Below are positions 1 through 62,304 of a stretch of 64,000 nt of DNA, one piece after another. The translations under genes and the position numbers were made by a program. The first letter of the stretch is position 1; each line of letters starts with the position of its first letter. The notes under the pieces are model-generated. The model was not told the DNA's origin, did not search any database, and was given only the letters and a program-made list of their open reading frames with translations. The stretch spans positions 27,109 to 91,108 of the forward strand of contig JAJFTD010000027.1 in assembly GCA_021373255.1 (NCBI GenBank), given 5' to 3'. Source of the stretch: a bacterium. GTDB lineage: Bacteria > Armatimonadota > UBA5829.

Positions 1-1068
1 TCGATGAAATCGTCTATATCACCGTCCATCACACGGGCCACATCGCCGGTTTCATGGCTTGTCCTATGATCTTTGACCATAGTGTAGGGTTGGAACACAT
101 ATGAGCGTATCTGGCTGCCCCATTCTATGGCTCGCAGATCACCTCTGAGTTCCGCGACCCTCTGCTCGTTCTCTTCCTGCGCGAGTTCTGCCAGCTTGGC
201 CGAAAGCACCTTCATAGCAAAATCACGATTCTTGTGCTGTGAACGCTCGTTTTGACAGGTTACCACTATTCCCGTAGGAATATGCGTGATTCTCACCGCA
301 GAATCAGTTTTATTTACATGCTGCCCACCAGCGCCGCTAGCCCGGTAAGTATCAATCTTTATTTCATCAGGGTTTATATTTATCTGAACCTCATCATCAA
401 TCTGCGGAATTACATCCACAGCCGCGAACGATGTATGCCTGCGCTTGTTGGCATCAAACGGTGATATTCTCACCAATCTATGCACACCGCGCTCGCTTTT
501 GAGGTATCCATAGGCGTTCCTGCCTTCGACCAGCACGGTAACGTTTTTAGACCCAGCAACATCTCCCGGCACACTATTAACTATCTCGGTCCGATAACCA
601 CGCCGCTCCGCCCATCTGAGATACATTCTCAACAGCATATCCGCCCAGTCGCAGGCCTCAGTCCCACCTGCACCGGCGTTAATCTCTACAATGGCGTTTG
701 CGGAATCATGCTCACCAGAGAGGAGTGTTTGCAGCTCAAACTGCTCGTAGGCGCGCTCAATCGACGCTAATTCTTCGCGGAGTTCATCTGCATCAGACCC
801 GTTATCATCTTCTACCATCTCTGCCAATTCCAGCAGGTCATTCACACGTGACTGCAAATCCAGCAGAGGGTCGATAATGGCCCTGAGTTCGGAGAGGTGT
901 TTTAGTATATTCTGAGCTTCCGAGGCGTCGTCCCAAAAACCAGGTGCCCCAGTCTGCTCCTCAAGTCTTTCTATTTCTTCCCGTATTCTAGGAAGGTCAA
1001 AGATGCCCTCCCAGCTCTTCGAGGTCTCGCCGTATTACGGCGGCTTTTTCAGTTTCGTAGTTCAGCAT
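1..1068 (-). CDS. prfB: Peptide chain release factor 2, with a programmed +1 frameshift. The gene is 3'-truncated by the window edge. Frame-0 ORF runs 1068..1000, with an in-frame TGA at 999..997, then continues in the +1 frame.
   Basis: Minus-strand translation from the ATG at 1068 gives MLNYETEKAAVIRRDLEELGGHL, then CTT TGA C (plus-strand TCAAAG at 997-1002), preceded by an internal SD-like GGGAGG. The +1 frame continues LDLPRIREEIERLEE... and contains SPF and the SGAGGQHVNKTDSAVRITHIPTG (GGQ) motif. The gene is immediately downstream of secA. Confidence 0.85.
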
Positions 1069-1160: not shown

Positions 1161-4100
1161 TTAATTGCCCAGCTTACCCAGGCAGCATTTCTTGAACTTC
1201 TTGCCGCTTCCGCACGGGCACGGGTCGTTGCGTCCGATTTTGCCTGTCATATGTGCAGTGCCTGTGGCTCTGGCAGTCATCTGTGGTTGGCCGTCGCCCA
1301 TTCCCTGCGGACCCTCGGCGGAAAGCTCCACTGCGTTCTCGTAAGTCAAACGCCTGCGTCTTGGAGGCTCCTGGGTCTGGACTCGATACATTATATGGGC
1401 CATATCTTCCTGGATGCTATCCAGCATTCCCTGGAACAGGTCGTAGGCTTCTTTTTTGTATTCGACCAACGGGTCGCGCTGAGCGTAACCGCGCAGACCG
1501 ATTCCCTCACGCAGGAAATCCATCGCGTCCAGGTGATCGATCCACTTGCGGTTGATCAAGTCCAGAGTTACATGACGCTCGATCTCACGCATCAGCTCAA
1601 CGCCGATCTCCTGTTCCTTGGCTGCATAGCTGTGATCCACGACCTCAGCCAGCATATCCTCAAGCTCATCGCGTCTCTTGCCCTTGAGAGCGTCGGGCTT
1701 TACGTAAAGCTCCAGCGGAAGGATCTCATTTACGTTATGGAACAGCCCATTGGTATCCCACTCGCTCGGGGCAACTCCTTCGGAACAGTAGTTGTTAATA
1801 GCCGCTACCATCGCCTGGTGCAGGTATTCGACCACCGTAGCCCTCAGGTCTGCGCCTTCGAGTATCATCCTGCGCTGGCCATAAATGGTCTCGCGCTGGA
1901 CGTTCATAACGTCATCGTACTCCAACACGTGCTTTCTCATGTCGAAGTGGTGCAATTCGACTTTCTTCTGCGCACGCTCAATAGCTTTAGAGAGCACCTT
2001 ACCCAGGCTGCCCTCGTGCTCGATAGCCTCGTGCTCCTGCCAGCTCTGGAACATCCACGAGTTGGTTTTGTCTCCAAACAGCCGCATGAGTTCGTCTTCA
2101 AATGAGACGAAGAACTTGGACATACCCGGGTCGCCCTGGCGTCCAGAACGTCCTCTGAGCTGGTTATCGATTCGCCTGCTCTCGTGTCGCTCCGTACCTA
2201 TAATGTAAAGCCCACCCCTGAGGACGACATCAAGTGTCCTGGGGTTGGCAGCCGCATCGGCGTATTTGTCCGGGTTGTGCATCTTCCATGAGTCGAAGTC
2301 CCATGTGAGGTCGGCCATATCGAACTCAGGCCCCTCGGGCTCCTCCTCGCCATCTGGAAGCGGAGCGCCGCCCGGGATGATGTCAACACCACGACCGGCC
2401 ATGTTGGTCGCGATTGTAACAGCCCCACGGCGTCCGGCTTGAGATATGATCTCAGCTTCCATCTCGTGATACTTGGCGTTGAGAACGCTGTGGACGATGC
2501 CTTCCTTGAGCGCCTCATACAACTTTTGTTTACCGCTTGGCCTTATGCCGAGCAGCGTCGCAAGCTCGTCGAGGTTCTTCTCGTTAAGCATATTAAGCTC
2601 AACACCGAGCTTCTTAGCCAGCTTGCCAAAGTTGTTAATCCCCAATGTGCTGAACTTTGCATTCAGCAGGTCATAGGACTCCTGCTTCTCTTCTTTGGAA
2701 ATATCATCTGCCGCTTCCAGGCGGGAACGCAGTAGCACCGTGGCCGCCAGCAGTTGCAGCCGCTCGGAGAGCAGCAGTTCGCTTATACGCTCAGATACTT
2801 CAATAGACCTGGTTCCGACCAGCACCGGCTGTTCGCGAGTATAAGCCTTGAGCACTTCGAGCATTATGCCTCTGAACTTGGCCTCTTCGGTCTTGAAAAT
2901 TACATCAGAGACATCCTTGCGTATTACAAGCCTGTTAGTTGGAATCTCGGCGACGTCCAGCGCATAGATCTTACGGAACTCTTCCTCTTCAGTCTTAGCC
3001 GTACCAGTCATACCTGATAATTTGTTGTAAAGCCTGAAGTAGTTCTGGTAGGTGATGGTTGCCAGAGTCTGGTTTTCCTCTTCGACCCGGCATCCTTCCT
3101 TTGCTTCAACAGCCTGGTGAAGCCCGTCGCTCCATCTTCGGCCGAACATCAGACGCCCGGTGAACTCGTCAACGATGGTAACCTGACCGTCCTTCACCAC
3201 ATAGTCGATGTCCTTCTTAAATACCGCGTGGGCTTTAAGGGCGGCGTTGACATACTGGTTAGTTTCCAGGTTTTCAGGGTCGCTGAGGTTTCCGCATCCG
3301 GTGATCTCTTCAACCTTGTGCGTGCCCTCTTCAGTGAGCATCGCAGTCTTGGCTTTCTCGTCGACGGTAAAATCGCGGTCCTTCGACAGCCTGCGCACAA
3401 CCTTGTCCATCTTATAATACATATCACTAGAGCGGTTGCCAGGCCCGGATATGATAAGTGGAGTTCTCGCCTCGTCAACGAGAATGGAGTCCACCTCGTC
3501 GACTATCGCGTAGTTAAGCTCCCTCTGGACCAGGTCTTCGGCTCTGAACGCCATGTTGTCGCGCAGGTAGTCGAACCCAAACTCGTGGTTGGTTCCGTAA
3601 GTGATATCGCAAGCATATGCTTCTCTGCGGCTCACCGGCCTCAGTCTATCCCAACCGTTTGGATCGTCCGCCACGTAGTCCGGATCGAATATGAACGAAT
3701 TGCTGGATTCCCTGCTCTCGGCGCTTTGGCCGTGGATCGATCCGACCGTGAGGCCCAGCATGTGATAAACAGGCCCGTTCCACCGCGCGTCGCGCTTGGA
3801 TAGGTAGTCGTTCACAGTAACCAGGTGAGCGCCCTTACCTGATAATGCGTTCAAATACAGAGGCAGCGTTGCGACAAGGGTCTTACCCTCACCGGTTCTC
3901 ATCTCGGAGATTCGCCCCTGGTGCAGCACCATACCACCGATCATCTGCACGTCAAAGTGCCGGAGACCAAGTACACGCATAGCGGCCTCACGCACCACCG
4001 CGAACGCCTCTACCAGTAGGTCGTCCAGGATCGCACCGTCAGCAAGCCGTTTGCGGAACTCGTCCGTCTTACCTCTAAGCTGTTCATCGCTCAGGGCCTT

Positions 4101-4389: not shown

Positions 4390-4412
4390 GGCTTCGGCTG
4401 CGTGCCGAAGCG
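4390..4412. repeat. GC-rich hairpin GGCTTCGG-CTGCGTG-CCGAAGC. It is a short member of the dispersed GCTTCGG...CCGAAGC hairpin family also seen at 33914, 59909 and 60029.
   Basis: Perfect 8-bp inverted repeat read directly from the sequence. The stem sequence is shared with the other loci. Confidence 0.4.
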
Positions 4413-4545
4413 GAGTGTGCTGTATTGATTACAAAAAGCAACAAACCGAATAACATTGCCAGGCGTCTTCTTGCAGGATGCCTGCTATTCTTTATACTGC
4501 TTTTTATGGCATTTTCGTTCGATGTTTCTTACGGAGAGAAAAAAA

Positions 4546-9082: not shown

Positions 9083-9123
9083 CATGTTGCATTACCGATA
9101 CGCGCAACACAGCGCGTTTCCCC

Positions 9124-9147
9124 GTTTCGGGAACAAGTTCCCGAAAC
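9124..9147. promoter_or_regulatory. 24-bp perfect palindrome GTTTCGGGAAC-AA-GTTCCCGAAAC, a candidate operator. A near-identical copy lies at 35704-35727.
   Basis: Read directly from the sequence. It lies between the -10 element and the RBS of the ORF starting at 9171. Confidence 0.6.
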
Positions 9148-9170
9148 ACCGAAGAAAAAGGAGATCGAAC

Positions 9171-9365
9171 ATGGCCTGTGACAGGACCAATGAAAACAAT
9201 AAGAAATGCACCTGCACTTATTCCGGCTGCTCCAAGCACGGCAAGTGCTGCGAATGCCTGCATTATCACCTGAGTATGGACCAGCTACCTGCATGCTGCT
9301 TCCCCTCTGAGGTCGAAAAGACCTACGACCGCTCGTTTGAAGCATTCATGAGGTGTCATTCATAG
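9171..9365 (+). CDS. Small cysteine-rich protein of 64 aa with 8 Cys, probably metal-binding. It overlaps the nth start.
   Basis: MACDRTNENNKKCTCTYSGCSKHGKCCECLHYHLSMDQLPACCF... RBS AAAGGAGA sits 7 nt upstream of the ATG. The 3' end overlaps nth by 13 nt. Confidence 0.5.
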   Translation: MACDRTNENNKKCTCTYSGCSKHGKCCECLHYHLSMDQLPACCFPSEVEKTYDRSFEAFMRCHS

Positions 9366-10051: not shown

Positions 10052-11473
10052 TTACTCTGAGTCCGTCGACGACTGCGCCTTAGGCAGGTAAAGCACTGCT
10101 GCATAGTTTGTCAGGTACTTTTTGGCGACACGCTGGACATCTGCGGAAGTTACCTTCTCCACTGCGTCCGGGAACCCGGCGTACATTTGATAGCTCGCGC
10201 CCACGGTTTCCAGCCATCCAAGCTCAAAGGCTCTATCCAGCATGTGTTGGTGTGACAGCGTGTAAGAGCCAACAGTATAGCCCTTGGCACGCTCCAGATC
10301 TTTTTCTGAGAGCGGCTTGTCCTTGACCTGCTCCACCTGCTCCAGCATCGCATTCTTTACATCATCGAGCACCAGTTCCGGCCCAATGTCGCCAATAGCA
10401 AACTTAAATGGATCGGTGATGATATACGCCACCAAGTGGCTCTGGTATTGCAGCCTGGGATACATAACTCCAACATCGTAGCCCAACCCGCGCTTCTGCC
10501 GCAGTTCACGGAAGAATATAGAGCCCTTGCCCCCGCCTAATGCGTTTGCGAGCACGGACACTGCCGGGTAGTCTTCTGAGTTCACACTCGGCGCGAGCCA
10601 ACCCATCATCAAGCACGCGGCTCCCAAGTCCACTTCCGAAGCGTGGAACTTGCTGCGGTCCAGTTCCTCATCAGGCATTCCCCGATTTGTTGGAAGCTGA
10701 CTCTTTGGAATTCCTGCAAACGCCTTTTCAGCGCGGTCCACAGCTTGATCTACTGTTACATCACCCGCCACAGCTATCACAATGTTGTTCGGCACATAGT
10801 AAGTGGAATGGAATTTGGTCAAATCCCGCGTGTTTGCCAGCTTGATGGTGCGTGCGAAGCCCAACTCCGGCCGCTTATAGCCGTTATCTTCGTAGAGCTG
10901 TTGCTTCAGGTCAAGATAGGCCTTTTCAAATACATCGTCGCTTTGCGCGTTGATGCGCCGCGTGAGGTCGGTCCTGACTTCCTCAACCCACTTGCCCTCG
11001 AAGTTCGCGTCCGTGATACATTCTCCAATCAGCGACATTGCCCTATTGAACATAACTGATGTGGTGACTGTCCTTATCTCAGCAAAGTCCTGGTGCCATT
11101 GCGCTGCGATGTTGCCTCCGACGCCGTCGGCCACCGCAGCGACTTCCTCGGCGGAACTCATTCGTGTGCTGGCCAATAGAAGCTGCGCCACATAGTTGCC
11201 GATGCCTGCGTTCTGAATACTCTCCTGAGCGGTTCCGGTCTTTATCATTGCAATTACCGCTACTATACCGCTGCCCTTTTCCGGCTTTACGACTAATGTA
11301 AGGCCGTTGTCGAGCACCTTCTTCACGATCTCCTGCTTACCCGTTTGTTGGGCGAGGGAAGGGGAAATTGATATAGCGAGAAAGATAGCTATGATTATTA
11401 ATCGCGAAAACACGAGAGGGCGAAAACGCGAAAATGGATTTCCTATTTGTTGATTTTTAACGCGTCTGGTCAT
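10052..11473 (-). CDS. M16-family peptidase subunit lacking the HxxEH motif (non-catalytic partner). Secreted.
   Basis: Insulinase-like fold (NGLTLVVKPEKGSGIVAVIAMIKTGTAQE...YYVPNNIVIAVAGDV) without the zinc-binding HxxEH. Its start ATG overlaps the upstream gene's TGA (ATGA). Confidence 0.8.
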   Translation of the reverse strand: MTRRVKNQQIGNPFSRFRPLVFSRLIIIAIFLAISISPSLAQQTGKQEIVKKVLDNGLTLVVKPEKGSGIVAVIAMIKTGTAQESIQNAGIGNYVAQLLLASTRMSSAEEVAAVADGVGGNIAAQWHQDFAEIRTVTTSVMFNRAMSLIGECITDANFEGKWVEEVRTDLTRRINAQSDDVFEKAYLDLKQQLYEDNGYKRPELGFARTIKLANTRDLTKFHSTYYVPNNIVIAVAGDVTVDQAVDRAEKAFAGIPKSQLPTNRGMPDEELDRSKFHASEVDLGAACLMMGWLAPSVNSEDYPAVSVLANALGGGKGSIFFRELRQKRGLGYDVGVMYPRLQYQSHLVAYIITDPFKFAIGDIGPELVLDDVKNAMLEQVEQVKDKPLSEKDLERAKGYTVGSYTLSHQHMLDRAFELGWLETVGASYQMYAGFPDAVEKVTSADVQRVAKKYLTNYAAVLYLPKAQSSTDSE

Positions 11474-12807: not shown

Positions 12808-12975
12808 CAGCCACTACCGATGCTGACTAATCCATATTATAATATGTTGTAGCTCAGATTGCGAGCTTTGTGGCATTACGGGTGATAAATGGGTCTACGG
12901 AGAAGTTTTTCGTGTGACGCGAGACTCCCGGATGCCGAACGCAAGACTAATAAAACGTGAAAAGTGGCTTAATTT

Positions 12976-15712: not shown

Positions 15713-16441
15713 CTACAATCTACAATCTAAATATGCTTTTACCGTGGCCTGTGTATCTCCGTCGGCTCGGACTTCACCTTTATCGAACCAGATAGTTCTC
15801 GATGCCACCGCGCGTGCTGCTTCCAAGTCGTGGGTTACAAACACGATGGTTTTACCAGCAGCTTTGAATGCGTCTATTCTCTTGTAACACTTTTCCTGAA
15901 ACGCCGCATCTCCTACCGCCAAGACCTCGTCTATGAGCAGGATATCCGGGTCAGTTTCAACCGCTACGGCAAATCCCAGCCGCATCAGCATACCCGCCGA
16001 GTAAGTCTTTACCGGTGTGTCTATGAAATCATTGAGCTCTGAGAAATCTATGATCTGGTCGATTTTGTCGCGAACCTGTGCGGTGCCCAGGCCCATAACG
16101 GCGGCGTTAAAAAATATGTTCTCACGACCTGTCAATTCAGGATGAAACCCTGCGCCCAGGTCCAGCATAGTGGACATCCGCCCATCTACCTCAACACTTC
16201 CGCCAGTGGGCTTGTAGACCCGTCCGATGATCCTCAGCAGCGTGCTCTTTCCCGAGCCGTTTCTGCCGATAATCGCGACAGTTTCACCGTGGTCGATGGT
16301 GAACGATAGCTCTTTGATAGCCACCAGCTTCTGCGGCCGTGCGTGCCTGAACGAGAGAATTGCGGACTTCAATGAGGTCTGCTTCTCCCGTATCATATCG
16401 AAAATCTTGGTTACGCTGTGCAGTTGAATCGCTGGTTTCAT
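15713..16441 (-). CDS. ABC transporter ATP-binding protein of the polysaccharide/teichoic-acid exporter type (Wzt/TagH/KpsT-like)
   Basis: Walker [10 protein letters not shown], signature [11 protein letters not shown], and Walker [13 protein letters not shown]. Its start ATG overlaps the stop of the upstream ABC-2 permease. Confidence 0.85.
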
Positions 16442-26373: not shown

Positions 26374-26760
26374 GGGCGAAGCACTTGCCCTTCGATTGCC
26401 GTATTTGCTGTAATCTTAAACGCAAGTGCTTCGCCCGCATGTGGCGGGTTTGCTATGCTGCGGGAACTTACCTGGTGGAGAATTCACGCATATGCTGTCA
26501 GCGTCGTTCCCGCAGGATATTAAACCATCAAGCTATCCGAGGGCGAACGCACGAATAAACGTTTGGTGATGGCATTCAAATAGATGACCTGCTTGATGGG
26601 AGGCGATCTCCGAATCGCCTCCCCAAAGCCAATGCCGGATTTCCGAATCCGGCTTCTTCGGCACAGGTTTTGGGGTTCGGAGACCCCATTCTTGGCCTTG
26701 AGGTGGCGATTCGGAGATCGCCACCTATCAGGGTTTCTGCAGGATATCAAACCATCAGGC
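26374..26760. repeat. Highly structured intergenic block made of several nested elements. A 15-bp inverted repeat runs 26374-26388 / 26422-26436. Direct repeats GCAGGATAT(T/C)AAACCATCA(A/G)GC sit at 26512-26533 and 26739-26760. Between them are four related hairpins: P1 26599-26622, P2 26634-26653, P2b 26672-26687, P3 26702-26725.
   Basis: P1 is GGAGGCGATCTCCGAATCGCCTCC. P3 is GGTGGCGATTCGGAGATCGCCACC, which is the reverse-complement core of P1 with a compensatory change. P2 is GCCGGATTTCCGAATCCGGC. P2b is GGGGTTCGGAGACCCC. All were read directly from the sequence. Confidence 0.55.
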
Positions 26761-31487: not shown

Positions 31488-31518
31488 CGACGACGAAATG
31501 CCATTAGGGAGTCTACCC

Positions 31519-33873
31519 ATGACGGCCTTCACTTCATCCAAAACAGTGATAGTTGCGGGTGTCGATCTGAGGATTGTTCGAGTCAACGATAGACTTGTTG
31601 ATGACCCACAATCCAAGGATACTCACGTCTACTCTCTAAAGGGCGTGTCTTTGCTCGATTATATTACTGAACTAGATAGACATGAAGTGGAGCAGATATG
31701 TGCACGCATTCTTGCAGGCGAAATGTTTCCCGGAGGCGCCAGAGTTTGCAGGAGAATTGTTGATAGTCCTGCGTGCTCCTCGGGAAAAGCCGTGATATTG
31801 TTAGGCCCGCATACTGATAGTGAAGGCGCTGTAGATGGAGTCATATTTGCACGATTTTGCCTTGATGAACGCGTTGAGACACCAATGCATGGCCCCGATC
31901 CGGAAACACTATATGATTATGTAGTCAACAACTCCAACGATATGGTGTTTATACTGGACAGCGATGGTACTTTGGAATTTGTGAATCGTCGTGCAGAAGA
32001 ACATCGAGGAGTGCCGTATAGTGATATTGTTGGCCGGCACTTTAGTGAGATATGCTACCCGGACGATATATCCGCCCTTCAACGGATACTGGATAACATT
32101 CAGATTTCGCGAGAGCCTGTGCATAACCTCCGCTTTCGCGTGGTGCTTCCCGATGGTTCGATCAGGCGATTAGTGGCCAATGGCGGGACGGTGAGTGTTA
32201 ATGGTAACGAGAAGTACCTGTGCATTGCCAGAGATATTACTGAGTATATCGAGCTTCGCGAAAAGCTGACGGTCCGCAATAAGGCGCTGGCCGCACTTAC
32301 TGATGTAATCATTTCCCTATCAGATGCAGGACATTCGGATAAAGCGCTGCGACTCGGTTTGAGCAAGATTTTAGATCTATTGGGTTTGCAGCAGGGCGCG
32401 GTCCTCCTTAGCAACACGCGTGGAGTGATGAAACTGAACACACACTGTGGATTCAATGAAATGGCGCTCAGTAATCCTGCGAAAAGGTATTTAATTGAGC
32501 TGGCAAGCTTATGTGCGTCGACAGGAGAGATGATCTTTGTTGATGACACGCTGTGTAATGATCATGGAACCCCGGAACTCCGTCAGGAAGCGTATCGCTT
32601 TGGTATTAGGGCATCGGTTTATGTGCCTTTGAAGCGTGGCGAGACTGTGAATGCGGTCCTTGCTCTGGGGGTGCCGCCATCCACTGAGCTGAGCGTTGAG
32701 CAGATGGAGTTTGTGAGGCTCGCGGTGGGTGTGCTTGGGCCTGCTGTCGAAAATGCTCGGCTCCACGTTGACCTCACCCATCAAGTTCAAGACTTGGCGA
32801 TGCTGGATGAGCTCATGAAATCCGTTAACGCGAGAAAAGACGTTCGCAGCATACTGGAGTCTTGCGTTAAGCAATTATCCGATGTGATAGAGGATGGTGT
32901 CGCAGTTATTGTGCTGTTCGGGGTTGATGGTAGTGTAGATGTGTTCCAATACCCGAAAGTCTGTCCGATGGCACACATTGACCTTGCAAGGCTGTCACTT
33001 GGGGTGATGGAACGCTTTATGGCAATGGCCAGCCCGCACATTGTTGACGACTACTCTGAGATGCCTATGAACCATCCTTTAAGTGATCAAATGGTTGCCA
33101 ATGGTTCAGGTGTGGTTTTGCCGCTCAAGTGTCTTGAAGGGCTGCGTGGGACACTTATGGTCTGGTCACCCGAAACCGGCAGGTTCGGCAAGCGGGAATC
33201 TCAGGTTTTGGAGTCGGTGGCGGAGCATGTGGTAATCGCGTTAACCAACGCTCGGCTTCATGAAGCTGAGAGAGCTCGGTCTCTGGAGATGGAAGCGATC
33301 GCGAAAGAGGCCCATCATCGCATCAAAAATAATCTCCAAGCCATTTTAGGCCTGCTTGCAATTGGTGAGATGGAAGGAGAATCAGCAATTGCAAGATGCA
33401 GGCGCCAGTTGAAGGCGGTTGCAGCAGTGCATGATATGCTGGTAGTAAAAGAATGCGGATCAGCAGATATATCATTAAGCGAATGCCTTGCAAAGGTGGC
33501 AGAACAGGCGCTTCTGGCTACGGGGTGGGGGAACACTGTGGAACTGACTGTCGAAAGTGACGGCCTAACCATTCGTCCTGACGCTGCAACAGCCGTAGGT
33601 ATTATCGTAAATGAGTTTGTATGCAATGCAGTGGAGCACGGGCTAGGTGAATGTGTTGTGAATGGTAAAATAGCTATTCGCGCATATCGTGAGGGCTCCA
33701 AGATATTGATAGAGGTTGTGGACAACGGAGTTGGATTCCCGCCAGGATTTGAAGTGCCGGAGAGGGCGGACAGCGGACTTGGGCTCGCAGCTTCACTGGC
33801 AACGTACGGACTTGGTGGTCGCCTGGAGCTTGAACGTGTCGACGATAAGACAATCGCCCGCATTACGTTTTAG
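31519..33873 (+). CDS. Multi-sensor signal-transduction histidine kinase (PAS plus two GAF domains, HisKA_2/HWE-type kinase core)
   Basis: PAS region (VNNSNDMVFILDSDGTLEFVNRRAEEH...). GAF-like regions. H-box EAHHRIKNNLQAIL (HisKA_2 type). HATPase_c with G-boxes (VVDNGVGFP...SGLGL). RBS AGGGAG sits 7 nt before the ATG at 31519. Confidence 0.85.
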   Translation: MTAFTSSKTVIVAGVDLRIVRVNDRLVDDPQSKDTHVYSLKGVSLLDYITELDRHEVEQICARILAGEMFPGGARVCRRIVDSPACSSGKAVILLGPHTDSEGAVDGVIFARFCLDERVETPMHGPDPETLYDYVVNNSNDMVFILDSDGTLEFVNRRAEEHRGVPYSDIVGRHFSEICYPDDISALQRILDNIQISREPVHNLRFRVVLPDGSIRRLVANGGTVSVNGNEKYLCIARDITEYIELREKLTVRNKALAALTDVIISLSDAGHSDKALRLGLSKILDLLGLQQGAVLLSNTRGVMKLNTHCGFNEMALSNPAKRYLIELASLCASTGEMIFVDDTLCNDHGTPELRQEAYRFGIRASVYVPLKRGETVNAVLALGVPPSTELSVEQMEFVRLAVGVLGPAVENARLHVDLTHQVQDLAMLDELMKSVNARKDVRSILESCVKQLSDVIEDGVAVIVLFGVDGSVDVFQYPKVCPMAHIDLARLSLGVMERFMAMASPHIVDDYSEMPMNHPLSDQMVANGSGVVLPLKCLEGLRGTLMVWSPETGRFGKRESQVLESVAEHVVIALTNARLHEAERARSLEMEAIAKEAHHRIKNNLQAILGLLAIGEMEGESAIARCRRQLKAVAAVHDMLVVKECGSADISLSECLAKVAEQALLATGWGNTVELTVESDGLTIRPDAATAVGIIVNEFVCNAVEHGLGECVVNGKIAIRAYREGSKILIEVVDNGVGFPPGFEVPERADSGLGLAASLATYGLGGRLELERVDDKTIARITF

Positions 33874-33913
33874 AACAAGCGAGAGATCTTTTAATCGCAA
33901 AAAGGACAAAGAG

Positions 33914-33946
33914 ATAACGCATGTTGCTTCGGACTGCGGAGCTGCC
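33914..33946. repeat. REP-like element copy TTGCTTCGGACTGCGGAGCTGCCGAAGCC, followed by a second GC-rich mini-hairpin
   Basis: Nearly identical (1 mismatch) to 59909-59941. Its inverted copy is at 60029-60063. Confidence 0.5.
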
Positions 33947-34039
33947 GAAGCCGCCGGGCGCGCCATCATCTCAACGATTCAATTGTATAGAATCACAGCA
34001 GTTAATAACGCGTACCAAAAATAGGGAGCGTGGGTCAAT

Positions 34040-34654
34040 TTGGGTTACAGAGTCCTAGTAGTAGAAGACGATCCGGTAGTGGCAGTTGGTATTGTGTCGA
34101 TTCTCCAGGAGGCTGGTCATGAAGTTACTGGTGTGGCGAGAAGTGGCGAAGAGGCTTTGGAGATATCGGCGAGCAATTCTCCAGAGATAGCGCTGGTTGA
34201 TGTGAAGCTGCCTGGTATGGACGGCATCAAGACTACGCGGAAGTTGGTCGAGCAGGGCAGCCCGGCGGTCATTATGCTGACTGCATATGCCGACAAGAAT
34301 TTGGTCGAGGGTGCGGCTCAGGCAGGAGCGTTTACTTATCTGCTCAAACCTGCTGATAAAGAGACGTTACTCGCCAATCTGGAGATTGCTACAGCCAGGT
34401 GGTCGGAGTTTGCTGAACTGCGAAAGGAAGCAGAAGACACCCGGACGGCGTTAGAGACGAGAAAGCTGTCGGAACGTGCAAAGCACGTAATGATGGAGCG
34501 GTTGTCCTGGAGTGAAGAGACCGCATTTGCACACATGCGCCATAAGTGCAGGAATCAGAACAAGACAATGCATCAGGTGGCTGAAGAGATTATCGCTGCT
34601 GATGAAGCCTTTATGGGGGTTATAGACAAAGACCCTCCAAAGAAAGATAAATAG
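34040..34654 (+). CDS. ANTAR-domain response regulator (REC + ANTAR, AmiR/NasT-type antiterminator)
   Basis: REC domain with the phospho-acceptor motif (VLVVEDD...IALVDVKLPGMDG). The C-terminal ANTAR motif is LETRKLSERAKHVMMERLSWSEETAFAHMRHKCRNQNKTMHQVAEEII. TTG start with RBS AGGGAG. Confidence 0.85.
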   Translation: MGYRVLVVEDDPVVAVGIVSILQEAGHEVTGVARSGEEALEISASNSPEIALVDVKLPGMDGIKTTRKLVEQGSPAVIMLTAYADKNLVEGAAQAGAFTYLLKPADKETLLANLEIATARWSEFAELRKEAEDTRTALETRKLSERAKHVMMERLSWSEETAFAHMRHKCRNQNKTMHQVAEEIIAADEAFMGVIDKDPPKKDK

Positions 34655-35703: not shown

Positions 35704-35727
35704 GTTTCGGGAACTTGTTCCCGAAAC
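35704..35727. promoter_or_regulatory. 24-bp perfect palindrome GTTTCGGGAAC-TT-GTTCCCGAAAC (second copy of the 9124-9147 operator-like element)
   Basis: Identical 11-bp arms with only the central dinucleotide differing (TT versus AA). It lies between the -10 element and the RBS of the downstream gene. Confidence 0.6.
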
Positions 35728-38385: not shown

Positions 38386-38422
38386 AAAAACGGCCCACCA
38401 ATTGGTGGGCCGTTAGTTTTTC
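38386..38422. terminator. Bidirectional intrinsic terminator between the TPR gene (+) and rpoD (-)
   Basis: AAAAACGGCCCACC-AATT-GGTGGGCCGTTAGTTTTT. Confidence 0.75.
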
Positions 38423-46700: not shown

Positions 46701-46729
46701 TTGTAGAGTTCGTATACACTGAACCAAAT

Positions 46730-46756
46730 AGCCGGGGCATTTGCCCCGGCTATTTG
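46730..46756 (+). terminator. Intrinsic terminator after glnN
   Basis: AGCCGGGGC-ATTT-GCCCCGGCT followed by ATTTG. Confidence 0.6.
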
Positions 46757-52028: not shown

Positions 52029-52104
52029 TGGAGCCGACGGAGGGATTCGAACCCACGGCCTGAGCTTTACGAAAGCCCTGCTCTACCTCTGAGCTACGTC
52101 GGCC
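52029..52104 (-). tRNA. tRNA-Thr (anticodon CGT), with encoded CCA
   Basis: Manual fold: acceptor GCCGACG/CGTCGGC, D-arm GCTC...GAGC, anticodon loop TTCGTAA, T-arm GTGGG-TTCGAAT-CCCTC, discriminator T, then CCA. Confidence 0.8.
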
Positions 52105-52113
52105 TAAAATGGG

Positions 52114-52189
<76 letters not shown>

Positions 52190-52319
52190 ACGTCGTTCGA
52201 TTCATGTCGAAGTCGGAGGCTCAAAGCCCACATTATTCCTGATTGCATTGCGGCTACGTCATTATTACTTGCCGTATCCGCGTTTTGTGAATAATGTGGT
52301 TTAGGACCTCCGACCAATG

Positions 52320-52396
52320 TGGCGGGGATGACGAGACTCGAACTCGCGACCTCCTACGTGACAGGCAGGCGCTCTAACCAACTGAGCTACACCCCC
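52320..52396 (-). tRNA. tRNA-Asp (anticodon GTC), with encoded CCA
   Basis: Manual fold: acceptor GGGGGTG/CATCCCC, D-arm GCTC-AGTTGGTTA-GAGC, anticodon loop CTGTCAC, T-arm GCGAG-TTCGAGT-CTCGT, then GCCA. Confidence 0.85.
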
Positions 52397-52404
52397 ACAT
52401 TTAC

Positions 52405-52480
52405 TGGTGGGCGAAGAGGGGCTCGAACCCCCGACATCTTCCTTGTAAGGGAAGCGCTCTCCCAACTGAGCTATTCGCCC
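52405..52480 (-). tRNA. tRNA-Val (anticodon TAC), with encoded CCA
   Basis: Manual fold: acceptor GGGCGAA/TTCGCCC, D-arm GCTC-AGTTGGGA-GAGC, anticodon stem CTTCC/GGAAG with loop CTTACAA, T-arm GGGGG-TTCGAGC-CCCTC, then ACCA. Confidence 0.85.
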
Positions 52481-58656: not shown

Positions 58657-59847
58657 TTGCCTGAGCGGAGGGTGAAGGTGATCAATCGCGGGGTTTTAAT
58701 AGTGCTGGACTCCGTGGGCGCGGGTGCGCTGCCGGACGCTGACGAATATGGCGATGCCGGTTCAAACACGCTTTCGCACGTTGCAGATTCGGTTGGCGGT
58801 CTTCATCTACCCAATCTGGAGCAAATGGGCCTTGGCAACATCATCCAGATAGCCGGTGTGCCGCCGGCTGATCATCCAACTGCCTGTTACGGCAGAATGG
58901 CAGAAGTATCCAAAGGCAAAGACACCACCACTGGGCACTGGGAGATGATGGGCATCATAACCGAACACCCATTTCCCGTCTATCCGCACGGCTTTCCCGA
59001 TAATGTGATGGAGAAGTTCGAGTCCACCATCGGTCGCAAGACTCTGGGTAACAAAGCCGCATCCGGCACAGAGATTATCAAGGAACTCGGTGAAGAACAC
59101 ATTCGCACGGGATACCCTATAGTCTATACCAGCGCCGACAGCGTCTTCCAGATTGCGTGCCATGAAGATGTGATCCCCATTGACGAACTCTACCGCATGT
59201 GCCAAATCGCCCGCGAGATGCTGGTCCCCCCGCACAACGTCCAACGGGTCATTGCCCGGCCATTCACAGGCAGCCCCGGCAATTTCACTCGCACTGAACG
59301 CCGTCGCGACTTCGCACTTGAGCCCCCGGTCGAAACTCTGCTAGACACCATAGCTGTATGCTGCGGTGAGGTCATCGGCATCGGCAAGATTGAAGATGTA
59401 TACGCGGGCCGAGGAATCACATCAGCAATACACACAGGCAACAATAAAGAGGGCATCGCCGCCACTATTGCAGCGATCATTGGCGACGAGGGTAACCTGA
59501 TTTTCACTAACCTGGTGGATTTCGACATGCTCTACGGCCACAGAAACGACTCCCATGGTTACGCGGCTGCCCTGGAAGAGTTCGATGTAGCCCTGCCGGT
59601 GATACTGGATGTTCTTAAAAAGGAAGATTTACTAATTATTACTGCTGATCACGGCTGCGACCCCACTACCCAGAGTACCGACCATTCCCGCGAGTACGTG
59701 CCGCTGTTGGTCTACGGTAAAGATATATCTCAGGGAATTAATCTGGGCGTTCGCTCATGTTTTTGTGACATCGCTGCTACCCTCGCCCAAATCCTTGGCT
59801 ATTCCTACTCATTACCCGGCCATAGCTTCGCTGCAGACATTTCATGA
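58657..59847 (+). CDS. deoB: Phosphopentomutase
   Basis: [27 protein letters not shown]...TTGHWEMMG...DHGCDPTT. The possible true start is the GTG at 58678, which follows GGAGGG. Confidence 0.9.
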
Positions 59848-59885
59848 TGGTTTCAGGTCTGTGACCCAAGTCCCACCTATTGCGA

Positions 59886-60107
59886 ATCTGCGATCCAATG
59901 TGACATAGTTGCTTCGGACTGCGAAGCTGCCGAAGCCGGCCTCGCAGAGGCCGAGAAGACCACGTTTCGTATAATTCACAGGCTTGGTTTATAACCGGTA
60001 CATTGTTTCGCCGCCTTCGGCGGCGGCTTCGGCAGCTCCGCTACGCTCCGCAGTCCGAAGCAACCTCAGTTTGTTCGCTAGCTTTCGACAACACTGATCT
60101 GCGATCC
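59886..60107. repeat. REP/MITE-like composite: two inverted copies of the roughly 33-nt element (59909-59941 and 60029-60063) flanked by 11-bp direct repeats ATCTGCGATCC (59886-59896 and 60097-60107)
   Basis: Left arm: TTGCTTCGGACTGCGAAGCTGCCGAAGCC. Right arm reverse complement: TTGCTTCGGACTGCGGAGCGTAGCGGAGCTGCCGAAGCC (carries a 10-nt internal duplication). Each arm is followed by a second GC-rich mini-hairpin. The direct repeats were read directly. Confidence 0.55.
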
Positions 60108-60342
60108 GCTCCCTTACACCTCCCCCTCTGTATACTTAGTGCTAGCTTGTCGACAGTATGGGCGCTTGGTTGACAAACCAGGGCTTGCATGTACGGTCGA
60201 CGTTATATTTTGTGCACCATGGGGTAAGCCCTCTAGGAACGTTTCCAAGTGAGATATTCGGAAATGGTCATCACCTGCATCACAGAGATACAGCGCACCT
60301 AACTATTGCAACGATGCAGCAATCGGGGGCGTAAGAGGCCAC

Positions 60343-62304
60343 ATGAAGAACAATGTTATAGGTATCCTCGCTAATATCAGGGCACGATTGTGCGTACCTG
60401 TGTTGATGACTGCAGACGCGGCAGCGTTGCTCGCGTCCATTGCACTGGTTCACATCTTGCGATTTGATAATATGCCGTGGGAAGCAATCTATAGACAATA
60501 CCTGCAGCCACACGCTCTGAGCGTGCCTGTTGTGGCAATTCTCTATATAACAATCTCAGCATCGTTCCGCCTCTACAGGTGCGCTTGGCGGTTTGCGAGC
60601 ATTGAGATGTTATGGGGTGTGGTGTGGGCCAACACAGTGGGCTTATTCGGGCTTATTGCAGTGCAAGTTTTGATGGATGGCTATGCGTTTCCATGGTCGG
60701 TGCTGGTGATGCTATGGTCTATTAACATTGTACTCGCCGGCGGCGTGAGGGTGTTCCTCAGGGTGCTCAGTATCGCGCAAAAGAGCGGGTGGGGGTCAAT
60801 CGTCTCCCTCGGAACAAAAGACAATGCCAAACGTGCCGTTATAATGGGCACGGGTATGGACGCTGTGCGCACGCTCAGAACTCTTCGTGAGGACCCCATG
60901 CTGAATTATGATGTCGTAGGTTTCCTCGATGATGATCCTAGAAAGAACGGAATGTATATCAGCAATGTGCAGGTGCTGGGGCCGCTGGACAAAGTAAAGC
61001 AGATGGTGGCTGATAAGTGCGTGGATGAGGTAATTGTTGCGCTTCCAGAGGTGGACCGCAGTGAGGTGCGCGAGTCTATTATGGCTTGCAGAAAGCACAA
61101 GGTTCCGGTTAAGTCTGTCCCTATTCTACGTGATGTACTCAGCAAGGCATCTACTACGCAGTTGGAGGAGTTTTCGGTGGAAGACCTGCTGCGTCGCGCG
61201 CCTGTGGATACTTCTGTAGCAGATATTGGCGGTTACATTACCAACAGCCGGGTTCTCATTACGGGTGCGGGAGGCTCTATTGGCTCTGAAATATGCAGGC
61301 AGGTCGCCTCACTCAATCCTGCGTCACTAATCTTGCTTGGCCACGGTGAGAACTCAATCCATTCAATATACCATGAGCTCTTGCGCACGTTCCCGCAGAT
61401 AGCGGACAAGATTCATTACGTCATAGCCACAACCGCGAACCAGCGCAGGATTAAGCAGGTGTTCAGGTATTACCGGCCTCAGGTGGTCTTCCATGCCGCC
61501 GCGCATAAGCACGTTCCGATGATGGAAACCAACGAGCAGGAAGCAGTCCTTAACAACGTGCTGGGGACATATAACGTGGCTGCAGCGAGTGGTGAGCACG
61601 GGGTAGAGCGGATCGTATTGATATCTACCGACAAGGCCGCCGACCCCTGCTGTGTAATGGGTGCAACTAAATGGCTTTGCGAAGAAGTATTCCGTGCAGC
61701 GGCAGTTGTGTGGAACAGCACAGCTTTTGTGACAGTCAGGTTCGGTAACGTGCTGGGGAGCAGAGGCAGCGTGGTGCCGTTGTTCAAGGAGCAGATCAGG
61801 CACGGAGGACCGGTTAAGGTCACGCACCCGGAGATGACGCGATTTTTCATGACGATACCGGAAGCCGTAAGACTTGTGCTTGAAGCCGGAGCGGTTGGCC
61901 GAACTGGTGAGCTTTACCTGTTGGATATGGGCAAGCCGGTTAAGATTCTGGACCTTGCACGAGATATGATCCGCCTGTGCGGGCTGGAACCTGATATAGA
62001 TATCGGCATTGAGTTCACAGGCGTGCGACCAGGCGAGAAGCTGCACGAGCGCCTGACATCATCACGTGAACAGATTGAGGCGAGCCCGTGGAAGGGCCTA
62101 TCCATAGTCCACAGACCTAACAATTTCTCGCCGGATCAGATACTGAACACCGTAAGCACCCTCGAAGAAGCAGTATCCTTCGGTAGTGATGCAAAGGTGC
62201 GCAGGCTGTTGGACGAGTTAACCCCGTCTGATGAGAAGCAAGCCCAAGTCTCTAGTCCCAGAGACTTGGAGAATGTGGAGACAGCATCCCGACAGGCGAT
62301 GTAG
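60343..62304 (+). CDS. Membrane-anchored CapD/WbpM/PglF-type nucleotide-sugar 4,6-dehydratase/epimerase (polysaccharide biosynthesis protein)
   Basis: N-terminal 4-TM domain, then a Rossmann motif VLITGAGGSIGSEICRQ, catalytic region HAAAHKHVPMME, and STDKA (the YxxxK-family SDR core). The length of 653 aa fits CapD. Confidence 0.85.
   Translation: MKNNVIGILANIRARLCVPVLMTADAAALLASIALVHILRFDNMPWEAIYRQYLQPHALSVPVVAILYITISASFRLYRCAWRFASIEMLWGVVWANTVGLFGLIAVQVLMDGYAFPWSVLVMLWSINIVLAGGVRVFLRVLSIAQKSGWGSIVSLGTKDNAKRAVIMGTGMDAVRTLRTLREDPMLNYDVVGFLDDDPRKNGMYISNVQVLGPLDKVKQMVADKCVDEVIVALPEVDRSEVRESIMACRKHKVPVKSVPILRDVLSKASTTQLEEFSVEDLLRRAPVDTSVADIGGYITNSRVLITGAGGSIGSEICRQVASLNPASLILLGHGENSIHSIYHELLRTFPQIADKIHYVIATTANQRRIKQVFRYYRPQVVFHAAAHKHVPMMETNEQEAVLNNVLGTYNVAAASGEHGVERIVLISTDKAADPCCVMGATKWLCEEVFRAAAVVWNSTAFVTVRFGNVLGSRGSVVPLFKEQIRHGGPVKVTHPEMTRFFMTIPEAVRLVLEAGAVGRTGELYLLDMGKPVKILDLARDMIRLCGLEPDIDIGIEFTGVRPGEKLHERLTSSREQIEASPWKGLSIVHRPNNFSPDQILNTVSTLEEAVSFGSDAKVRRLLDELTPSDEKQAQVSSPRDLENVETASRQAM

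Follow-up and report, generated by a model that had tools for sequence, protein, structure and literature searches.

A dispersed intergenic hairpin-repeat family with 11-bp flanking duplications in uncultured Armatimonadota

An inverted pair of hairpin units between deoB and capD

The 64,000-nt stretch of Armatimonadota DNA analysed here (assembly GCA_021373255.1, contig JAJFTD010000027.1; hereafter the window) carries an inverted pair of GC-rich hairpin units, flanked by an 11-bp direct repeat, in a 495-nt gap between the phosphopentomutase gene deoB (58657-59847, PF01676) and a gene for a CapD-type polysaccharide biosynthesis protein (60343-62304, PF02719). An earlier note on this DNA had proposed that the pair belongs to a family organised like repetitive extragenic palindromic (REP) sequences and bacterial interspersed mosaic elements (BIMEs), and that it forms a non-autonomous element of roughly 200 bp bounded by a target-site duplication. 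We conclude that this doublet is probably one member of a small non-autonomous mobile palindromic family that is spreading in an uncultured Armatimonadota clade. The protein encoded by deoB in the window matches P0001, 'MAG: phosphopentomutase [Armatimonadota bacterium]' (MAG, metagenome-assembled genome), at 100% identity, and a second MAG has an identical deoB (MEN6584340.1). A uvrA-bearing (P0126) stretch, L022, from contig JBDKRM010000068.1 (139,358 bp) of the Armatimonadota MAG GCA_039683435.1 overlaps the window; position x in L022 corresponds to window position x + 54410, and L022 adds 13.3 kb past the window's right end, so that 77 kb of one genome were read in all.

The doublet and its surroundings comprise the following features, in window coordinates.

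59858-59885, + strand: left part of an interrupted target, the double-hairpin module D'-D, whose remainder lies at 59886-59896 and 60108-60112
59886-59896, + strand: left direct repeat ATCTGCGATCC (target-site duplication), exact, with similarity ending at 11 nt; with the flank upstream of it, this repeat makes up the left half of the interrupted D'-D
59897-59907, + strand: left tail of the insert, AATGTGACATA, 11 nt between duplication and left arm, not conserved in other copies; L008, a diverged relative described below, has an equal 11-nt offset from repeat to GTTGC
59908-59937, + strand: left arm, a 30-nt core with stem GCTTCGG/CCGAAGC around a GCGAAGC mini-hairpin, 75.6 bits
59937-59953, + strand: second hairpin C-GGCCTC-GCA-GAGGCC-G, with a C:G-closed GNA triloop, covarying across copies
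59954-60009, + strand: doublet spacer, starting GAGAAGACCACGTTTCGTATAAT
60009-60025, - strand: second hairpin of the right arm, C-GCCGCC-GAA-GGCGGC-G, with core 60010-60024 closed by C60025:G60009
60025-60064, - strand: right arm, the 40-nt long core GTTGCTTCGGACTGCGGAGCGTAGCGGAGCTGCCGAAGCC, 68 bits
60065-60096, + strand: module X, CTCAGTTTGTTCGCTAGCTTTCGACA (60065-60090), and a 6-nt tail, ACACTG (60091-60096)
60097-60107, + strand: right direct repeat ATCTGCGATCC, whose downstream flank GCTCC carries on the D module

The family is defined by a 30-nt core, GTTGCTTCGGACTGCG(A/G)AGCTGCCGAAGCC, found at 59908-59937 (+) and 33923-33952 (+), with a 40-nt long form at 60025-60064 (-). The 15-mer TTGCTTCGGACTGCG has three exact matches in the window, where 0.19 are expected (at up to two mismatches), and a covariance model, R1, built from nine copies, found just three significant sites there, scoring 75.6, 68.0 and 54.2 bits. 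Each unit arm consists of a 7-bp stem, GCTTCGG/CCGAAGC, closing a 12-nt loop that holds GCGAAGC or GCGGAGC; over the whole family the arm spans 28-40 nt, with a consensus stem GCNTCGG/CCGANGC enclosing a GCGNAGC mini-hairpin. The two arm cores of the window pair lie 87 nt apart. The direct repeats do not abut the arms, being separated from them by 11 nt on the left and 32 nt on the right.

A second hairpin was said in the earlier note to follow each full copy. It does so directly after most arms; at the copy near 33923, however, the proposed hairpin GCCGGGCGCGCC is not this covarying hairpin but part of a different tail, GCCGGRCGCRCCAT. Where the second hairpin is present its stem has compensatory changes in four of six pairs, with 98% of cells paired across copies; the covariation score was reached by none of 500 shuffles, and pairing was only 24-50% when the partner column was slid. 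On the arm's own strand its loop reads GCA (seven hairpins), GAA (three) or GGA (one), and the closing pair is C:G in 11/11. Most copies have an unchanged first stem, but in a compact doublet at L029, another diverged relative, the third pair of this stem is no longer U-A: one arm has A-U and the other G-C. Both hairpins are thus kept by compensatory changes, and the expected mismatch between the two L029 arms argues that selection acts on the local hairpins and not just on a long foldback between arms.

A full homologue of the window pair is present in the MAG MFD01112.bin.2.12 (L004 3925-3672 = L025 12943-13196), where the layout of a 30-nt left and a 40-nt right arm is repeated and the start of the spacer is partly conserved. 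The additional 10 nt of the right arm had been attributed to recent slippage; because the homologous right arm (L004 3672-3711) is likewise 40 nt long in diverged sequence, that explanation no longer holds. Module X, a 26-nt segment on the right side of the pair, recurs with two mismatches beside a truncated core at L022 12922-12898 (-), with an alignment score of 44 against a shuffle maximum of 26, indicating that the repeated unit reaches past the inverted arms. Taken as RNA, the 200-nt insert has a predicted fold of -92 kcal/mol (z = -7.2).

A dispersed family at non-orthologous sites

The unit recurs at five loci in the 77 kb: at window 33923 and 59908 (+)/60064 (-), and at L022 9760, 12942 and 17140, which bears out the earlier description of a hairpin unit at several loci and once as an inverted pair. 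The members beside the doublet, together with their relatives elsewhere, are listed here.

33907-33978 of the window, + strand, core 33923-33952: w1, a solo copy of a second subtype, 54 bits (54.2), in the gap between a PAS-GAF histidine kinase gene and an ANTAR response-regulator gene
L022 9760, + strand: copy in the gap of divergent AP_endonuc_2 and uvrA genes
L022 12942, - strand: truncated core immediately downstream of uvrA
L022 17140, - strand: third member, past the window's end
4391-4411 of the window, strand unassigned: doubtful short relative, GCTTCGG-CTGCG-TGCCGAAGC
L008 15943-15762, - strand, and L029 9697-9782: diverged relatives in GCA_054641875.1
L029 13801-13823: diverged fragment, assigned solely by BLAST, which matches its 23 nt exactly to the L008 insert
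L026 20994, - strand: diverged relative
L028: diverged fragment in GCA_039679645.1

The w1 copy exists as had been reported, although its core lies at 33923-33952 and not, as first given, at 33914-33946, which is wrong by 9. Its sister copy is L022 9744-9815; both have in common ~17 nt preceding the core as well as the tail GCCGGRCGCRCCAT, which replaces the second hairpin in w1 and L022 9760 and is also carried by L022 17140. The surrounding region (31498-34654) encodes a PAS-GAF-HisKA_2 histidine kinase followed by a receiver-ANTAR response regulator, an RNA-binding antiterminator, and w1 occupies the 166-nt gap between them. The short relative that had been placed at 4390-4412 is borderline (R1 E ~1.2 on the + strand, ~4 on the - strand); it could represent either a copy that has decayed or a hairpin with no relation to the family. 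A further R1 match, at 1023-1069, is not a copy: it falls in the frameshift region of the gene for release factor 2 (RF2), prfB.

Beyond the 77 kb, a scan of species-representative genomes found true copies just in MFD01112.bin.2.12 (L001 and L004), which holds just two exact 19-mers genome-wide; two other matches in that scan were chance occurrences inside open reading frames (ORFs). Three further true copies, L005, L006 and L007, came from a metagenome scan, and a homologous member is also present in ERZ27297473. At least three other Armatimonadota assemblies hold relatives, at non-orthologous sites. No family member was found in the stretches sampled from L027, L023/L024 and L009-L011, which are of the same clade. 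A viral-contig scan with a 17-mer gave ten matches, all in coding sequence and all attributable to chance; plasmid BLAST returned no match to the 200-bp insert, and a literature search for the core string returned nothing but unrelated primer sequences.

Among these genomes UvrA identity is 81-88%, and the genes next to the unit differ from genome to genome: uvrA/ybjQ in the MFD genome, deoB/capD and histidine kinase/response regulator in the window genome, and glycosyltransferase/DHDPS and phd/uvrA in GCA_054641875.1. Every copy is intergenic, as the earlier note had asked to be checked. The units point either way relative to their neighbouring genes and lie at gene 3' ends, at 5' ends and in convergent or divergent gaps; besides singlets there are doublets, namely that of the window (59908/60064), one in L004/L025 and one in L029. 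This dispersed, intergenic hairpin-repeat family is therefore real. Confinement to a few loci at orthologous sites, which had been named as the finding that would speak against mobility, is not what we see, as the loci occupied differ from one genome to another.

Eleven-bp repeats flank inserts, one of them in an interrupted target

The two direct repeats described for the doublet are exact: the 11-mer ATCTGCGATCC is present at 59886 and 60097 and nowhere else in the window (0.05 expected). When the best 11-mer common to the 45 nt upstream and the 120 nt downstream was extracted for each member, exact 11-bp flanking repeats emerged at three members and a 10/11 repeat at a fourth. In the window, ATCTGCGATCC flanks the 200-bp insert 59897-60096; at L022 12942, TATCTGGGTGA (+) at 12869 and 12946 flanks a 66-nt insert right after the uvrA stop; and at L008, TGGTGTCGAAG at 15965/15776 flanks a 178-nt insert, with the left copy ending 11 nt before GTTGC. 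The fourth case, L022 17140, reads ATCTGG(T/C)ATAT. By comparison, anchors drawn at random from the 77 kb gave, in 20,000 trials, an exact repeat 59 times (0.3%) and at least 10/11 in 4.3%. In all three exact cases identity ends at precisely 11 nt on either side, and the three duplicated sites of the window genome all hold ATCTG.

With the insert 59897-60096 and one of the repeat copies taken out, the remaining sequence, TCTGTGACCCAAGTCCCACCTATTGCGAATCTGCGATCCGCTCC, aligns without gaps, at 33/44 positions, to an intact module, TCTGTGATCTGGGACCCAGATTTTGCGGATCTGTGATCCGCTCC, at L022 12983-13027 downstream of uvrA (alignment score 48, shuffle maximum 33). The reconstructed empty sites themselves read TTGCGAATCTGCGATCCGCTCC at deoB-capD and TTAGCCCTATCTGGGTGAGGGTTCAC after uvrA. 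Within the 77 kb the string GATCNNNGATC is limited to three occurrences, which fall at the right repeat copy and in the intact uvrA-side module. The module in question, D'-D, is a two-hairpin structure centred on GATC-TGY-GATC, intact at L022 12975-13030 and interrupted at window 59858-59896 + 60097-60112. The left repeat bears the module's left flank and the right repeat its right flank, as predicted by insertion near the dyad with an 11-bp duplication, and D'-D appears to be a preferred insertion target. The interpretation of the 11-bp repeats as target-site duplications of a non-autonomous element of ~200 bp, first put forward for the doublet, is supported by two more exact 11-bp members and by this intact paralogous target.

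A candidate mode of movement and its rivals

On our preferred reading, the family would be a non-autonomous element mobilised in trans by a dedicated enzyme and recognised via its internal DNA hairpins, the arm's own strand, as single-stranded DNA (ssDNA), being the form that the enzyme would bind. Integration would duplicate exactly 11 bp of target, implying cuts staggered by 11 bp, and the preferred site would be the centre of other small palindromes holding ATCTG; the 200-bp insert would have landed in a D-type hairpin downstream of deoB. In read-through RNA the doublet would fold at about -90 kcal/mol, which might affect deoB-capD transcripts. Staggered-cut integration is typical of DDE transposases and duplications of 10-13 bp are typical of the IS4/IS231 group of insertion sequences (IS), within which IS231 prefers quasi-palindromic targets and typically duplicates ~11 bp; HUH/Y1 transposition, of the REP-associated tyrosine transposase (RAYT) or IS200/IS605 type, is not known to leave a target-site duplication, which makes the RAYT that the earlier note suggested hard to reconcile with the duplication it also proposed. 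A single-stranded functional form is suggested by the loops, since GNA triloops and GCGAAGC are strand-specific DNA motifs. The d(GNA) triloop is ~3 kcal/mol more stable with a C:G than with a G:C closing pair (PMC3201870), and d(GCGAAGC) and its relatives are 'mini-hairpins' with a Tm of ~76 C, nuclease-resistant and far more stable as DNA than as RNA (PMC13037366).

Several observations weigh against this account. No transposase gene of any type was seen in the window, L022 or the other loci examined, and the outer ends of the four duplication-flanked inserts, compared by eye, differ and have no terminal inverted repeats in common. About 11 of 15 members have no flanking duplication (none above background at w1, L022 9760, the L004/L025 doublet, L001, L005-L007, L026, L028 or L029); these members are presumably older. 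The L008 case is less clean than the others: its right repeat overlaps a string, CGAAGCAAC, similar to the right end of the family itself, and the target there may have been an old copy. The genome-wide copy number is an extrapolation from 77 kb. Moreover, the nearest accessible relative has 74% deoB and 87.6% UvrA identity, too low for the comparison of an orthologous empty site, and synteny downstream of deoB is not kept.

The combination of features also invites a more unusual proposal. The inverted arms lie 3-32 nt inside the insert boundaries, with distances from duplication to GTTGC of 11, 3, 26 and 11 nt in the four inserts; single-stranded hairpins and the lack of terminal repeats would suit an HUH/Y1 enzyme, yet the 11-bp duplications are hard to square with one. 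If an HUH enzyme or a reverse transcriptase produced hairpin-bearing ssDNA that was then integrated at palindrome dyads with an 11-bp stagger, and if the integrating enzyme recognised internal DNA mini-hairpins instead of element termini, this would account at once for the missing terminal inverted repeats, the variable ends, the strict 11-bp duplications and the conservation of GNA triloops. Such an insertion mode would be undescribed, and we consider it unlikely.

A genuine family of REPs and REP doublets forming hairpins (REPINs), moved through ssDNA by a single-copy RAYT, with the 11-bp repeats of some other origin, seems to us fairly unlikely. It has in its favour a conserved arm pair, a less conserved compensating spacer and accompanying singlets, all as REPINs are described (PMC3116915), along with hairpins optimised for ssDNA, an absence of terminal inverted repeats and asymmetric insert tails that recall the asymmetric REPIN intermediate. 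What it leaves unexplained are three exact 11-bp duplications and an interrupted target, which do not follow from the duplication-free chemistry of IS200/IS605; in addition, the unit starts with GTTG and has no 5' GTAG of the kind found in many REP classes, neither the window nor the other loci examined showed a Y1 transposase gene, and the two exact 19-mers in the related MAG are far under typical REP numbers. Dispensing with a dedicated transposase altogether, one could suppose that hairpin segments were copied as filler at palindromes broken by cruciform or hairpin cleavage and that the staggered ends were then filled in. Variable insert ends without terminal repeats fit this idea, as do targets that are small palindromes hit near the dyad and inserts (A and B) that have module X in common but different ends. 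A constant 11-bp duplication in two genomes is, however, more typical of a fixed-geometry enzyme, and the strong conservation of arm and GNA loops despite UvrA identities of only 81-87% implies selection for recognition; we therefore hold the filler scenario to be improbable.

Covariation in both hairpins, the position of w1 and of the window doublet just downstream of same-strand genes, with w1 preceding the ANTAR response regulator, and a very stable predicted fold (z = -7.2) might instead point to a unit that acts primarily as structured RNA, such as a cis-regulatory element, a stabiliser in a 3' untranslated region or a small RNA. Against this, copies lie in both orientations and in every kind of gap, GNA triloops are a stabilising motif specific to DNA, and the flanking duplications would be left unexplained; Rfam gives no match other than generic long-hairpin noise, no T-tract follows the hairpins and a terminator scan finds none at the unit, and the loops of 3 nt and 12 nt are not ANTAR-type paired hexaloops. 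An RNA role is in our judgement very improbable. Finally, a 30-nt core that is identical across distant genomes is what would be expected of a non-mobile protein-binding or terminator motif, with the 11-bp repeats arising by chance. This explanation, already disfavoured, has become barely credible in view of members at non-orthologous sites, a patchy distribution among relatives, three exact 11-mer flanking repeats against a 0.3% background and a visibly interrupted target.

Some specific assignments were considered and set aside. Integron attC sites do not fit, as the unit's ends, GTTGCTT...AAGCAAC, are in the wrong order for RYYYAAC...GTTRRRY. An intrinsic terminator is contradicted by the missing T-tract, by the use of both orientations and by copies upstream of genes too. 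ANTAR RNA targets are two tandem hairpins with hexanucleotide loops carrying a conserved A1 and G4; here the loops are 12 nt (5 nt in an alternative fold) and 3 nt, and one of five loci adjoins an ANTAR gene. A small-RNA gene was likewise rejected. Rfam searches of the window, the element and the three metagenome loci yielded no relevant family: transfer RNAs (tRNAs) alone pass the gathering threshold, and searches by E-value returned plant microRNA-precursor models that match any long hairpin.

Relation to known small repeats

IS1397 and ISKpn1 insert in the loops of REP palindromes and are full IS3-family elements that make 3-4-bp duplications. The family described here resembles them in that insertion is aimed at the centre of small palindromic repeats, and differs in that its inserts contain no transposase. 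The BIMEs of E. coli are mosaics of a principal palindromic unit and other small motifs. Here too the unit keeps company with other small modules (module X, D'-D hairpins, TTAATCGCG repeats and short tandem repeats), so that the mosaic comparison drawn in the earlier note is apt; the sequences, however, are unrelated, and BIMEs are not known to carry target duplications. With classical miniature inverted-repeat transposable elements (MITEs) such as Correia, RUP and ERIC the family shares its non-autonomous nature, a length of 60-200 bp, intergenic location and a fixed-length duplication, whereas its outer ends are without terminal inverted repeats, its conserved part is internal or subterminal and its ends vary by copy.

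REPINs consist of two conserved inverted REPs with a compensating spacer, fold alternatively into a long hairpin or a clover, and occur beside singlets that are their derivatives (PMC3116915). Like the REPs and REPINs of P. fluorescens and enterobacteria (PMC3116915), the present units are short GC-rich extragenic palindromes that form an inverted doublet with singlets alongside. They depart from that model in their exact 11-bp target duplications, the lack of a 5' GTAG, a much longer bipartite arm, what looks like a low copy number in one host or more, the absence of a RAYT from the loci examined, and a host phylum, Armatimonadota, outside the Pseudomonas and enterobacterial hosts of that work. 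DNA mini-hairpins of the types d(GCGNAGC) and d(cGNAg) are found at ssDNA priming sites and phage N4 promoters (PMC13037366, PMC3201870). Every well-preserved unit of the present family carries motifs of this set (GCGAAGC, GCGGAGC, CCGAAGG, C-GCA-G). In phages and plasmids they are working ssDNA signals of origins and promoters, whereas here they belong to dispersed chromosomal repeats.

The family is new, and in an unusual phylum, yet of a known general kind, the small palindromic mobile repeat, with an atypical combination of features. Small palindromic repeats are best described in proteobacteria, and how they move is still known largely by inference; a family in a poorly known uncultured phylum that has left clear insertion footprints (11-bp duplications, an interrupted target and an intact paralogue) bears on that question. 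Since the duplications do not fit the RAYT model and the absence of terminal inverted repeats does not fit the MITE model, a different enzyme or intermediate may be at work. Elements of this sort also break MAG assemblies, seed spurious ORFs and can alter the expression of neighbouring genes.

Other repeats and genes around the units

Further short repeats accompany the family. Tandem repeats of 7-8 nt adjoin GTTGC units at L022 9694-9741, L006 965-1025, L005 772-799 and L007 520-547, of the types AAGGTCAY x4, GTTGACR xn and CCTGTAA xn. Another family of short repeats, TTAATCGCGAAAACACGARAGRGCGAAAACGCGAAAWTGG, is present at window 11398-11433 and ~33885-33905, L022 9655-9690 and L001 229-258, three of the four copies lying ~25-100 nt upstream of a GTTGC unit. 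At L005 860-905 and L007 420-462 the unit sits within a larger composite that runs from a hairpin repeat, CTCCCTCTCCCCTYGCGGGAGAGGGCCGGGGTGAGGGGG, to GATCCCTTCCCT and heptamer repeats. In a 1.4-kb non-coding stretch after a relative's uvrA, L028 has two ~50-nt copies (3200-3250 and 4445-4500) of GGGAYC..AGTCCCGGAYACATGCRTCGGGGGTTCAAACCCCC..GATC with a hairpin like a tRNA T-arm, and the string GACCCAAGTCCC is common to this L028 element and window 59864-59875.

A perfect operator-like palindrome, GTTTCGGGAAC-NN-GTTCCCGAAAC, occurs at window 9109-9151 and 35704-35727, L022 21051-21091 and L001 7827-7855. It is found in at least three promoter-like gaps of the window genome, one of which precedes a small Cys-rich ORF starting at 9172, and is probably a transcription-factor binding site. 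Self-comparison of the window revealed perfect or near-perfect palindromes at 38389-38414 and 46725-46756 and an inverted repeat pair at 26602-26632 and 26692-26722, 90 nt apart, all of them possibly terminators or other hairpin modules.

In MFD01112.bin.2.12 uvrA (L004 4268-6867 = L025 10001-12600) is split into ORFs of 733 and 133 aa and several nearby flagellar genes are fragmented too, probably through frameshift errors in the assembly. The window also contains a cluster of four tRNA genes at 52032-52480 (-). At 1000-1066 (-), directly downstream of secA, lies the start of prfB with its classic programmed +1 frameshift site, ...CTGGGAGGGCATCTTTGACC, in which a Shine-Dalgarno-like GGGAGG is followed by CTT TGA C.

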